DNA of 64,000 nt from Octopus vulgaris. Lineage: Eukaryota. The stretch lies in the NCBI GenBank assembly GCA_951406725.2, contig OX597825.1:69378001-69442000 (forward strand). Direction: 5' to 3'. The position numbers and the translations under genes are program-made. Positions 127 through 53,253 of the stretch are shown one piece after another; position 1 is the first letter of the stretch, and every line of letters begins with the position of its first letter. The notes under the pieces are model-generated. The model was not told the DNA's origin. It saw only the letters and a program-made list of their open reading frames with translations, and made no database searches.

Positions 127-180
127 TCTCTGATGACGGAATATTCCATAATCTGAGATATCCCAGAAACACCTGTTAGA
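127..180 (+). ncRNA. Type I hammerhead ribozyme motif in a Penelope-like 3' fragment (1-402) ending in (TA)n
   Basis: tct-CTGATGA-cggaatat...atatccca-GAAAC-acct-GTT-aga: intact core, stem I tct/aga, stem II gga(a)tat/atatcc, short near-palindromic stem III. Confidence 0.65.
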
Positions 181-402
181 CTTTGAATTTTTTTTCCAAT
201 AATAATAACGTATATGACTTGAAATGTCTGCCTCGCCTAAACATTTGTTGTCCTTTTTAACAATCATATGCCCGCTTTATCAGAAATCTGCAATGACTCA
301 TAACTACCGTCTTGGTTACGACCTAGGAACCCCAGTAATCCGTTACAGCACTTACCTAGCGTACCTAAACGCTTAGATCACCTAGGAACTAAACTCCCAT
401 AC

Positions 403-740
403 TATATATATATATATATATATATATATATATATATATATATATAACATAAGGGACTAAAGCCATCTGAATATAGCTAGGGACAGGGCAATCTGTTCGA
501 CTGCCCTGTCCCTAGCCATATTCAGATGGCTTTAGTCCCTTATGTTATGGAGCAGTTACTGTCTATATCTCATTTAGAGAATTATTATTGCTATATATAT
601 ATATATATATATATATATATATATATATATATATATATATACTATATATATATATATATATATATATATATATATATATATATATATATATATATATATA
701 TATATATATATATATATATATATATATATATATATATATG
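403..740. repeat. (TA)n microsatellite interrupted by a 47-bp-arm inverted repeat insert (444-591)
   Basis: TA tracts 403-445 and 592-740; arms 444-490 and 502-548 are near-perfect reverse complements. Confidence 0.9.
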
Positions 741-1056
741 TATATACGCACACACACATATATATAAATACACACATTCACGCACATTTACATATATACA
801 CATGTTAAAGAAATACATGAAAAGATAAATCAAAATGACTTTTAAAAATGTAGCACAAATTAATAAAAAGTATACACAAAAGAAAATATAACGCTGCTGT
901 CTATACAACAGGGGTAACAAGAGAAATTATGAGACGTATGTATTACATAATACAGTATTTCGCAGTTTTGTTATCTATTGATATTACGTGGAATTCTCGT
1001 TGTATTAAGCTTTATAGTATTTCGTTTTGTAATATGGGTTTCTGAAACCGCAATAT

Positions 1057-1441
1057 GGAAGCACTCCGTCGGTTACGACGACGAGGGTTCCGGTTGATCT
1101 GATCAACGGAACAGCCTGCTCGTAAAATTAACGTGTAAGTGGCTGAGCACTCCACAGACACGTGTACCCTTAACGTAGTTCTCGGGGATATTCAGCGTGA
1201 CACAGAGAGTGATAAGGCCGGTCCTTTGAAATACAAGGTACAACAGAAACAGGAAGTAAGAGTGAGAGAAAGTTGTGGTGAAAGAGTACAGCAGGGATCA
1301 CCACCATCCCCTGCCGGAGCTTCGTGGAGCTTTTAGGTGTTTTCGCTCAATAAACACTCACAACGCCCGGTCTGGGAGTCGAAACCGCGATCCTACGACC
1401 GCGAGTCCGCTGCCCTAACCACTTGGCCATTGCACCTCCAC
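1057..1441 (-). mobile_element. tRNA-derived SINE (family C), full length with TSD
   Basis: Minus-strand head tggaggtgcaatggccaagtggttagggcagcggactcgcgg...gtttcgactccc (A/B boxes); TSD aaccgcaatat at 1046-1056 and 1442-1452. Confidence 0.9.
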
Positions 1442-2259
1442 AACCGCAATATACTATAGCATTTCTTTCATTGTTTCCATATCAAGGCGTTATAATTGAA
1501 AAAAGACTTTATTGATAAAACCTACAAACACACTCACCAGTTGTTGCTTGTCTGTATTTCTGTACTCTTTATTCTTTCGAAACAATTGATAGTTGTTTCC
1601 GTTCCCAATCATAGTTTTCGTTTTCACAATCTTTAGCTTTCTCGAAGGACGGTTAACGATATTGATGAAACCACAATGTTTTACATCTAAATTCTAGCAA
1701 CATAAATTCAAATACTTTTTTTTTTGTCTTTTATTACTTACATCTTTTATTAATTGAACTGAGGCTGTGTGGTGTGTGTGTGGGGGTCACCACCTCCAAG
1801 GGTTTTACCCGAACAAAGAGATACCAGTTCGTATCTCTTAAGCCTGATATTTATTCAATCGGCCTCTTACGCTGAAACGATAACTTGCAGGCGCAAAAGC
1901 AAGTCTACACCGTTTTCAAGTGTTATATATATATATGTATGTATGTATATATACCATCAATTTCGACCTGCAAAGATACCCGTGACTGTAACATCTACAC
2001 CAGCAGCTATGGTATCATCAGCAGTCAAGACAACCGAAAATAAACTAACATCACATCTTGCAGCAAGAAAAACAGTAATGACCCCCTCCTCCAAAAGAAG
2101 AAGAACAAAAACATATTGCTGCCTCCCAGAAAATTCGTTGAAAGGCAGGTCAATGTGGCAACGATTGCCCGAGGGAACTGTTCTGTGCTAAGTATGCGCC
2201 TAGTGATGACGACTGGGCACTTACCCCAGTGGTTATCTCGACTGTGGTTTTGTGGAGTT

Positions 2260-2360
2260 ATCATCATCGTCGTCGTCGTCGTCGTCGTCGTCATCATCAT
2301 CATCATCATCATCATCATCATCATCATCGTTATCATCAACATCATCATCGTTATTATCAT
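2260..2360. repeat. (CGT)n/(CAT)n trinucleotide microsatellite
   Basis: Direct reading. Confidence 0.95.
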
Positions 2361-50987: not shown

Positions 50988-51759
50988 AATTAATTGTTAT
51001 CGCCATATTAATATGGCATTCTTATAGATATAAGAATAATCGCTGCCGCTGGCCAGCTCTATGAGGCCACCGCCATCAAGATAGCTATTGATACACGATC
51101 TGTATCCATTATAACCTTCGAACAAGGGAGGTCAGCCGCTTCACACTGCCAGTCCGACAGCTACAGACGCGTTTCGGGGTATTGCCCCTTGTCAATGTAG
51201 CGCAGTCAGACCCGCAGGTGTCGCCACTGACGTCTCTCTTCGAAGGTTTCTATTTACCTAGTTTCAGTGGAATACATCCACTTGTTTTCAATAATAGAAA
51301 TATTAAAATTACTAAGTCTCTATAAAAGAGATTACGGCAGCGTTTACTGGAAATTAATTGTTATCGCCATATTAATATCGCCATATTAATTTCTATTATT
51401 GAAAACAAGTGGATGTATTCCACTGAAACTAAGTAAATAGAAACCTTCGAACAAAGACGTCAGTGGCGAAACCTGCGGGTCTGACTGCGCTACATTGACA
51501 AGGGGCAATACCCCGAAACGCGTCTGTAGCTGTCGGACTGGCAGTGTGAAGCGGCTGACCTCCCTTGTTCGAAGGTTATAATGGATACAGATCGTGTATC
51601 AATAGCTATCTTGATGGCGGTGGCCTCATGGAGCTGACCAGCGGTAGCGATTATTCTTATACCTATAAGAATGCCATATTAATATGGCGATAACAATTAA
51701 TTTCCAGTAAACGCTGCCGTAATCTCTTTTATAGAGACTTAGTAATTTTAATATTTCTA
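50988..51759. mobile_element. Inverted pair of a circularly permuted 364-nt hammerhead-bearing monomer (retrozyme-like) within (TA)n
   Basis: Left arm repeats aattaattgttatcgccatattaat at 50988 and 51352; right arm repeats tttcta at 51390 and 51754 (both period 364); hammerheads at 51160-51201 (-) and 51489-51530 (+). Confidence 0.85.
51489..51530 (+). ncRNA. Type I hammerhead, U3-A8 core variant
   Basis: gctaca-TTGACAA-ggggcaatacccc-GAAAC-gc-GTC-tgtagc; stems I and II perfect, palindromic ACGCGT stem III. Confidence 0.8.
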
Positions 51760-51849
51760 ATATATATATATATATATATATGTGTGTGTGTGTGTGTGAG
51801 TATGTATATATATACATATATGTACATACTTCCATATATATATATATAT

Positions 51850-52270
51850 AAAGTTAATCCAAACAAGAAAGCACAAAAAAACACAACAACGCGAGGACGT
51901 GGAACAAATAGAGCATTATTGGACGCTCAGGAAAGAAGGATGTATGCATATATGGTTACAGGACATCTTAAAACGTAAACAACATGAAATAGGATGTCGA
52001 ACAATATTTTTCGAACAACGAGAGAAACAAATGGAAAACAATACAAGTAACATAAAAAACGACCCTTCATCAGTTGTCGGCTGTTTATATATTTCAAATT
52101 TTGAGCAATTCACGACAATATGTGTCTTCGATAAAACAGTTTCTCCCGCAGCCAAAATATAATTTGGGATTTTCAGAGGGTGAAAACAGGACAGTGAAAA
52201 CAAATAGTGAGGGCCGGTAGGCCATAATACGAAGTAAGGTGGTGAACGCTTGAGGGACAATGTTTGGCAG
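51850..52270 (-). mobile_element. Two abutting Penelope-like 3' fragments between TA tracts
   Basis: 51850-51940 matches the tail of 27325-27518; 51945-52270 ends like 22238-22380 (gtcctgta...tatatgcat) and contains CTGATGA at 52067-52073. Confidence 0.55.
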
Positions 52271-52369
52271 GAGAAAAGATAGGAGAAGATGTGTGTATAT
52301 ATATATATATATATATATATATATATATATATATATATATATATATACACATACATGCATACATATACA

Positions 52370-52515
52370 TACGACGGGATTTCACTTTGTGTCTACTAAA
52401 TCCATTCACAAGGCTATAGTGAGAGACAATTGCCCAATGGTCCAGGCAGTGGGACTGAACCTGGATCAATGTGGTTGGGAAGCAAGGTTATTACCATTCA
52501 CCCACGTCCGCGCCT
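52370..52515 (-). mobile_element. SINE family B head half
   Basis: tacgacggg...aaatccattcacaaggc...cagtgggactgaacc. Confidence 0.75.
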
Positions 52516-52809
52516 ATATATATACATATATATATCTATCTATCTATACACACACACACACACACACACACACATATATATATATATATATATATATATA
52601 TATATACACACACATATATATATACACACATATATATATACACACATATATATATATACATACATATATACATATATATATATATACACACATATATATA
52701 TACCCAGATATATATATATATATACATACATACATATATATATATATATATATATATATATATATATATATATATATATATATACATATATATATATACA
52801 CATATATAT

Positions 52810-53253
52810 ATAAAAAAGAAGTTTGAAAACGCGACTATATAAGATAAATTTTAATTTTATTTGAAATTTTACATGTTTCGGTTCTTCTTGAAAAAACGAA
52901 TCTTATCAAAATTATTTTAAAACGTGAAGTGTAATAAAAAAGTTCATAGTTGTTTCTTACTGGTCTCAACAGAATCGTCCTATGTGTTCGAATACAACTA
53001 AAGAAAAATCTTTACTTTTTCTTTAGTTTTATTCGAACACATAAGACAGCTGTTATACTTACTCCCCACAAAATAAAAACAACGTGGATTCTGTTGAGAC
53101 CAGTAAGAAATAATTATGAACTTTTTTATTACACTTGACGTTTTAAAATATTTTTGATAAGGTTCGTTTTTTCAAGAAGAACCGAAACATGTAAAATTTC
53201 TAAGAAAATTAAAATTTATCATATTTAGTGGTGTTTTCAAACTTCTTTTTTAT
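52810..53253. mobile_element. Head-to-head inverted pair of an AT-rich hammerhead-bearing element within (TA)n, with a nested inner palindrome
   Basis: Arms 52810-52976 / 53087-53253; inner arms 52977-53011 / 53017-53048; attt-TTGATAA-ggttc...gaacc-GAAAC-at-GTA-aaat at 53150-53197. Confidence 0.8.

Follow-up and report, generated by a model that had tools for sequence, protein, structure and literature searches.

Hammerhead-motif ends of Penelope-like elements and protein-less retrozyme units at TA microsatellites in the genome of Octopus vulgaris

Introduction

What are the short hammerhead-like sequences that lie in and beside the (TA)n microsatellites of the Octopus vulgaris genome, and which machinery placed them there? 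The question is raised by a 64-kb stretch (C12:69378001-69442000 of a 2.8-Gb assembly of ~30 large contigs; hereafter the window), for which a preliminary description listed eight such sites and read all of them as short elements mobilised in trans. We regard it as likely that the sites are hammerhead ribozyme (HHR)-motif ends of several families of Penelope-like elements (PLEs) plus three protein-less tandem units, all of them written into (TA)n by the reverse transcriptase (RT)-endonucleases of PLEs. The earlier reading merged two classes, namely PLE ends and protein-less retrozymes: autonomous PLEs left truncated ends at 127, 12209 and 52.8k, and probably at 27.4k as well, so that only three of the listed elements are protein-less. 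On the other hand, its broader claim, that HHR-bearing retroelements related to PLEs are numerous, diverse and targeted to TA, is upheld by the repeat families, a genome sample and the covariation of stems between families.

Results

Hammerhead motifs in the window

The listed site coordinates proved correct when checked on the letters of the window, for which 84 (TA)6+ tracts were listed. At seven of the eight sites (E1 and E3 to E8), the type I HHR was recovered in repeat families with 3' ends at (TA)n, while the site at 6824 (E2) is a degraded singleton. The core CUGANGA, supposed to be present at every site, is a different matter: strict CTGANGA was found at only two of the eight (130+ and 12214+), and the other sites bear CCGATGA (22019+ and 21959-), CTGACAA (27391+), CTGTTGA (32922- and 33403-), TTGACAA (51495+ and 51195-), TTGATAA (53154+ and 52909-) or ATGGTGA (6829+). 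The three-helix type I core is canonical in E3, variant in E4, E6, E7 and E8, present at the family level in E1 and E5, and was not found in E2.

For type I motifs we used a descriptor that admits four cores (canonical, U3·A8, U4C and A6U), picked after the window had been seen and before the genome sample described below. It gave eight hits covering five of the eight listed sites, and no hit once the window was reversed. It does not recognise the copies present at 127 and 27.4k, but other copies of both families pass it; these two are decayed copies from families having proper HHRs. E2 (6824..6875, +) has three core mismatches and fails the descriptor, its only match in a genome DNA search was itself, and a 20-nt pattern with one mismatch retrieved no relative. 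Thus, E2 is kept here as an unconfirmed HHR-like relic and not as a member of any HHR family. No hammerhead family appeared among the 150 listed of the 329 matches in an Rfam scan of the window, only microsatellite-driven miRNA matches.

The sites had been said to contain no RT or GIY-YIG open reading frame (ORF). This stands inside the window by tblastn; upstream of 127, however, a decayed GIY-YIG is present ~1 kb beyond the left edge of the window. The little similarity described among the sites likewise holds for most of them, except that those at 27.4k and 32.8k are homologous and those at 21.7k and 51.0k have a common fold.

Autonomous PLE families and their truncated ends

In the family searches, 40 candidates were scored and 30 loci fetched per element, with the window copy and some overlapping loci included. 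Extending the families to seek RT/GIY-YIG ORFs, as the preliminary description had advised, yielded autonomous PLEs with RT plus GIY-YIG. The RT is followed by a C-terminal GIY-YIG in a single ORF in the parents of E3, E6 and E8, while E1 has only an endonuclease (EN) remnant. Pfam RVT_1 and GIY-YIG were detected in PLE-A and PLE-B (RVT_1 of the former and GIY-YIG of the latter slightly below the cut-off), and the two domains of PLE-C and PLE-D were identified through translation and tblastn. A genome search for GIY-YIG returned at least 150 places, many within the 781-aa frames of PLE-A. HHR-bearing pseudo-long terminal repeats (pLTRs) flank the ORF at L214-L217 (PLE-B), L212 (PLE-A), L352 and L355 (PLE-C) and L386 (PLE-D). 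The families further display 5' truncation, an inverted 5' copy, a one-sided tail and a microsatellite target, albeit the B/E5/E6 group has no tail and is rarely inverted.

PLE-A comprises ORF1 and a 781-aa RT/GIY-YIG ORF, intact in L212 and L213. PLE-B is arranged as pLTR, 5' untranslated region (UTR), a 1096-aa (stop-to-stop) RT-linker-GIY-YIG frame that is open in L214-L217, 3' UTR and pLTR. PLE-C, a Poseidon-type element of 727 aa that is absent from the window, possesses an HHR whose helix II is 2 bp long, and its two ends are separated by 66 nt (L352 and L355); the best 150 of its 18,684 candidates are 98-100% identical, and we regard it as a very young candidate driver of retrozymes. 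The linker C-x4-C-x2-C precedes GIY-YIG in PLE-A and PLE-B, not in PLE-C or PLE-D; a CX2-5CxxC-type linker is given for Neptune/Nematis (PMC8557442; here and below, statements on the literature refer to the consulted sections of each source).

E1 (1..402, +) is the 3' end of a 5'-truncated Penelope/Poseidon-type PLE and ends at (TA)22. Its partly decayed HHR (127-178, +; core CTGATGA at 130) has a long helix II, its relatives are 81-86% identical, and the decayed GIY-YIG left of the window (locus L226) is of Poseidon type with 41% identity to PLE-C over 64 aa. E3 (12205..12343, +), a descriptor hit between TA tracts, is the pLTR tip of the Poseidon-type PLE-D, and its HHR (12209-12257, +) has the canonical core and a 4-bp helix III. 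Two E3-type pLTRs flank a frameshifted RT-EN ORF, 36-48% identical to PLE-C, in L386, and another follows a 519-aa open RT-EN in L387. E8 (52812..53251) is an inverted pair of PLE-A 3' ends, 89-92% identical to the PLE-A end, with a U3·A8 HHR at 53150-53197 (+) and a decayed copy at 52909 (-); its counterpart in L040/L219 lies ~0.3 kb downstream of GIY-YIG. E5 (27330..27518, +) is the 3' end of a PLE-B-related element. Its window core CTGACAA is a decayed CTGACGA, the core found in 20 of the 30 E5 loci, and its homology to the PLE-B pLTR (score 66 vs 27.6 shuffled) suggests that it is probably a truncated end of an autonomous PLE. A second E5-type 3' terminus, in which the HHR is not retained, lies at 51853..51940 (-) and is 81% identical to 27438-27518. 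A B-like ORF in L155/L230 was considered as the parent of E5 and rejected, as it lies downstream as a separate insertion.

Two side observations concern PLE-D and E3. A multi-kb 3' UTR of TG/TATG microsatellite-like sequence moves with PLE-D (L366, L386 and L359), and thus some "simple repeats" here are transposon cargo. Many of the short E3 copies at L093-L119 share a single fold-back point immediately 5' of helix I. This point might be where transcripts begin or where RT halts; the query may bias this pattern.

E6, an ORF-less derivative of PLE-B

E6 (32792..33605, -) consists of 1.7 tandem copies of a 481-nt unit with A6U HHRs at 33371-33408 and 32890-32927. In the unit, 188 nt are 100% identical to both pLTRs of L214 and the other ~292 nt are 95% identical to the 5' UTR of PLE-B. 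E6 thus arose from PLE-B by the joining of the 5' UTR to the 3' pLTR, with the deletion of ~4 kb including the whole ORF. We found twelve distinct ORF-less E6 insertions (the one in the window and 11 others among the 40 scored candidates), one of which has more than four units. The longest ATG ORF is 56 aa in E6, 70 aa in E4 and 21 aa in E7. At 481 nt, the E6 unit is longer than the ~170-400-nt range of retrozymes. Contigs from presumed (guessed) RNA runs covered E7 and PLE-B in pieces, and one of them joins the PLE-B 5' UTR to the 3' pLTR across 4021 nt; as such contigs carry no strand, end or circle information, they are evidence neither way on expression.

E4, E7 and E0, the protein-less retrozyme units

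E4 (21696..22231) is composed of two inverted arms of a 364-nt retrozyme, the left one with a 57-nt tail, and bears U4C HHRs at 22013-22058 (+) and 21920-21965 (-). Its best copies are 99% identical, tandem units were seen, and the circular fold has a z of ~-7. E7 (50988..51759) likewise comprises inverted arms of a second 364-nt retrozyme, here with the 57-nt tail on the right arm, and bears U3·A8 HHRs at 51489-51530 (+) and 51160-51201 (-); its copies are 97-98% identical and the circular-fold z is ~-8. Of the 3' ends that abut TA, 37 of 38 in E4 and 38 of 39 in E7 occupy one of two positions separated by 57 nt, at equivalent places in both families, and ~70% of the E4/E7 loci have an inverted arm. 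E0 (447..592, +), a site absent from the preliminary description, is a palindromic fold-back remnant of a third retrozyme family with a one-sided tail and TA on both sides, truncated before the HHR. It matches the unit of a trimer in L334 at 95-98% identity, and the units of its family are 355-360 nt long with a U4C HHR. All three families thus have non-coding tandem units with one type I HHR each. A T-rich repeat end with 70-87% relatives at several loci (22240-22443) adjoins E4.

Five natural units of E4, E7 and E0, which are 53-84% identical to one another (shuffles 50%), are self-paired with circular-fold z values of -3 to -8. By tree distance, the two folds of a pair were closer than the average of the shuffles in all 10 pairs, and closer than any shuffle in 9 of them. 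Stem covariation, which the preliminary description had made a test of its reading, was recovered among these units in a plain MAFFT alignment (n=5; three core-blocking pairs dropped): 32 of the 55 pairs change on both sides (0/500 shuffles; slid controls 3-10), with 6/6 in helix I and 3/4 in helix II. The helices and the 3-8 pair covary, apart from a U3·G8 subfamily considered in the Discussion.

Two ideas on these elements found no support. The likeness of the E4 tail to PLE-C was not significant (p 0.30), and A-to-G editing is unsupported in E4, E7 and E6, as 7 of 213 private variants were common to copies of one insertion and none was A>G.

Frequency, chance level and TA association

We took an independent sample of sixty 10-kb stretches (600 kb) at arbitrary hand-picked positions elsewhere in the genome. 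The descriptor matched 23 times, compared with 0 in the reversed and ~1.6 in the block-shuffled sequence, and extrapolation gives ~107,000 HHR motifs in the genome (Poisson 68,000-161,000, an interval that is too narrow because three sample matches belong to one insertion). The spacing of one element per 8-9 kb proposed from the window holds locally, but the sample gives one per 26 kb; the density of the window (8 per 64 kb) is about three times that of the sample (23 per 600 kb). The first-look candidates, which are not copy numbers, were 1629 for E4, 1909 for E7, 76 for E3, 410 for E6, 2177 for E5 and 2450 for E1.

As 41% of the window lies within 300 nt of a TA tract on either side, the window alone is weak evidence of TA association. 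In the sample, (TA)5+ occurred within 150 nt downstream of 12 of the 23 matches against a background of 13.4% (p ~1e-5), which bears out the predicted enrichment; upstream, TA was found at 7 of 23 (p 0.027). At the 30 loci of each family, TA lies within ~40 nt of the 3' end in 30 (E3), 28 (E7), 27 (E4), 25 (E5), 20 (E1) and 20 (E6), the background being 6.4%. The 10 E6 loci without 3' TA are 5' pLTRs that continue into the ORF, and some microsatellite adjoins 29 of the 30 E1 loci. TA also precedes the 5' end at 25 (E4), 24 (E3), 22 (E7), 16 (E6), 12 (E5) and 6 (E1) of the 30 loci. Since the 5' end points are scattered among family loci, TA ahead of them points to TA targets that pre-date insertion. 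An inverted copy is present at 21 (E4), 22 (E7) and 23 (E3) of the 30 loci. At L006, L011, L017, L081, L334 and L359, different PLE/retrozyme families stand head to tail in one TA tract, as if it were a reused landing pad.

Variant hammerhead cores

A census of every single (18) and double (9) variant of the core in the sample gave 10 canonical, 8 A6U, 3 U3·A8 and 2 U4C matches, and at most one of any other. The 64 hits with U3·A8, most of them E7 because of how the loci were selected, represent 19 distinct sequences, vs 2 of C3U and 0 of G8A. Of 32 B-type HHR contexts outside the loci chosen through E5 and E6 (one of the contexts is probably spurious), 29 have U at position 6 and 27-31 keep positions 3, 4, 5, 8 and 9, while position 7 is T in 10, G in 9, A in 7 and C in 6. 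Intact PLE-B copies also have A6U. The A6U core is therefore fixed across the E6/B subfamilies while position 7 varies. An alternative register of the A6U HHR (TTGAAGA core) was rejected, because it disrupts helix II and because A occupies this position in the homologous E5. Self-cutting by these HHRs is predicted from their sequences.

Other features of the window

HHR-like words followed by a TA tract were noticed at 36428-36800 (-; CTGATGA at 36666), where the descriptor fails and no relative was found in the fetched loci. A repeat at 51950-52296 (-), in which GAAA words precede CTGATGA at 52073, is 76% identical to locus L249 and has relatives in the sample. The window also contains a 479-aa LINE-type RT fragment that is not of a PLE (34726-36165, -; Pfam RVT_1, E 1e-26) and a broken non-LTR element with zf-RVT (48398-49792, +), which we take to resemble an R4/Dong-type restriction-like endonuclease end.

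Discussion

We propose that GIY-YIG would nick TA-rich DNA, where RT would then prime, as the biochemistry of PLEs suggests. The points where RT begins may be internal and fixed, lying downstream of the HHR, with one such point in the B/E5/E6 group and two, 45-65 nt apart, in PLE-C, E3, E4, E7 and E0. Early termination would leave short HHR-bearing tips, and inverted arms with the tail on one side would result if copying began on both of the nicked strands or if RT switched templates. E1, E3, E5 and E8 may have been made in cis as truncated ends, and E6 may have been copied in trans by its parent PLE-B. For E4, E7 and E0, multimer transcripts would be cut by the HHR (through a dimer fold with palindromic helix III) into ~360-nt circles copied in trans, probably by a two-start Poseidon-type PLE such as family C. 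Such a scheme is in line with the Poseidon PAc protein in vitro (Frangieh et al. 2024, PMC11167929), which cleaves both strands of AT-rich DNA and initiates RT internally at two positions, by which the tail is delimited; the HHR lies just upstream. PAc is an assayed protein studied without non-autonomous templates, whereas the octopus PLEs are known here from sequence.

Several observations weigh against the proposal. The locus counts above rest on the best 30 of 40 scored candidates, with the window copy and overlaps among them, and covariation was counted in the five sequences that had also served to predict the consensus structure. The ends of E4, E7 and E0 had no similarity to those of PLE-A, PLE-B or PLE-C (p 0.12-0.99), a stable circular fold was not found for E6 (z +0.65), and no parent ORF of E5 was found in 30 loci plus 3 extended ones. 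One E0-type subfamily has U3·G8, an uncompensated core (11 of the hits shown). Private variants common to copies in one insertion amount to 2/96 in E4, 5/79 in E7 and 0/38 in E6, so few that templating by one circle is hardly supported in these families.

The HHRs could instead be largely non-catalytic, that is, folded protein-binding or promoter-linked parts of pLTRs, with mobility independent of cleavage. A6U is the commonest variant core in the sample (8/23), and changes at A6 and U4C reduce activity (PMC3088659); the PLE HHR cleaves only with the protein and is dispensable for insertion, which HHR mutants left unimpaired in vitro (PMC11167929); and cleavage was absent in 8 of 9 Xenopus retrozyme dimers (bioRxiv 2026.07.22.740005). 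Nevertheless, the swap from C3-G8 to U3-A8 preserves a pair required for the active fold, the B-type HHRs keep the five core positions given above with position 7 free, and the U-H cleavage triplet is retained. We therefore see a largely non-catalytic role as a serious but doubtful alternative to HHR-processed units.

A less probable explanation, which we consider unlikely, is that all sites are cis by-products of autonomous PLEs, E4 and E7 being pLTRs of unfound parents with tandems that arose locally. Truncation in cis does hold for E1, E3, E8 and probably E5, and a rare E4/E7 parent could be missed in searches that scored the best 40 candidates. On the other hand, at 60 E4/E7 loci the unit is preceded by a further unit, by an inverted arm or by flanking DNA unrelated to it, and the PLE ORF fragments at such loci lie past a TA tract as separate insertions. 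Moreover, the E4, E7 and E0 units are colinear, 355-364 nt in length and fold as closed rods, and E6 spread without an ORF at 12 loci. Finally, the palindromic look of E0, E4, E7 and E8 and the ubiquity of TA tracts might suggest DNA-level fold-back/MITE-like transposition or satellites, with TA growing after insertion, but this idea is very improbable and largely refuted by fixed 3' ends, scattered 5' ends, one-sided tails and variable palindrome centres, all signs of retrotransposition, by the dispersal of E4/E7/E0 copies across many chromosomes, and by the same layout in ORF-bearing PLEs.

Returning to PLE-written ends and units, the components are known biology: HHRs in PLEs, TA targeting and PLE-driven retrozymes have already been published or proposed. 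The PLE system of PMC8557442 (2021) is alike in the HHR (near the 3' end, with an extra nucleotide after A9, a palindromic helix III and the U3·A8 variant), in the layout (mostly truncated single motifs, partial tandems, an inverted 5'-truncated copy and a one-sided tail), in the microsatellite bias and in the order of RT then GIY-YIG. The octopus differs in the estimated ~1e5 motifs vs 2,000-9,000, in the family-fixed A6U and U4C cores, and in tails of 45-65 nt vs 30-40. No cephalopod host was found in the text of that system or in one supplement file searched.

E4, E7 and E0 share with the metazoan non-LTR retrozymes (Cervera and de la Pena 2020, PMC7229834; Li, Clavereau, Pollet 2026, bioRxiv 10.64898/2026.07.22.740005) highly self-paired, non-coding tandem units (350-390 nt in mussels), a 6-bp helix I, a 4-bp helix II and co-existing PLEs; the GC content of E4 and E7 is 43-45%. 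In contrast to those retrozymes, the octopus insertions are targeted to TA and show inverted arms and tails of the PLE kind, and an intact parent of 95-100% identity exists for E6. Circular RNA and cleavage were demonstrated for the metazoan retrozymes, whereas the octopus units are described here as DNA. Among natural HHR variants (Perreault et al. 2011, PMC3088659), U3·A8, U4C and the 10.1-11.1 mismatch seen in E3 have counterparts; A6C is described there as slow, and A6U was not found. A 2026 octopus repeat annotation (PMC13282606) gives 31 recently active Penelope-like families, and the word "hammerhead" was not found in it. Our literature searches returned no survey of cephalopod HHRs or retrozymes and no report of an A6U core; subscription papers were outside their scope, and PMC4209133 and the bioRxiv supplements could hold examples.

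Altogether, we regard the system as mostly known biology in an undescribed host, in which the E6/PLE-B pair, the conserved whole-unit fold and A6U are the testable extras. Tentatively, the genome may display a whole retrozyme life history at once: the birth of E6 by one ORF deletion from a live PLE-B, mature viroid-like 360-nt circles whose entire fold would be conserved across unalignable families as a recognition signal for PLE RT with two fixed starts, and, as the commonest hammerhead class, an undescribed CUGUNGA core that might still cut, likely with the help of the PLE protein.

About 100,000 HHR motifs would rank among the largest counts in the literature consulted (up to 120,000 in the axolotl, with a tenfold larger genome). 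A role of PLEs in the copying of animal retrozymes has been argued from co-occurrence and pLTR homology (PMC7229834; bioRxiv 10.64898/2026.07.22.740005). The 95-100% identical PLE-B/E6 pair, the fixed RT start points of E4 and E7 and the very young intact PLE ORFs make retrozyme copying testable in vitro, and the family-fixed A6U core offers a test of whether cleavage matters for the mobility of PLEs.

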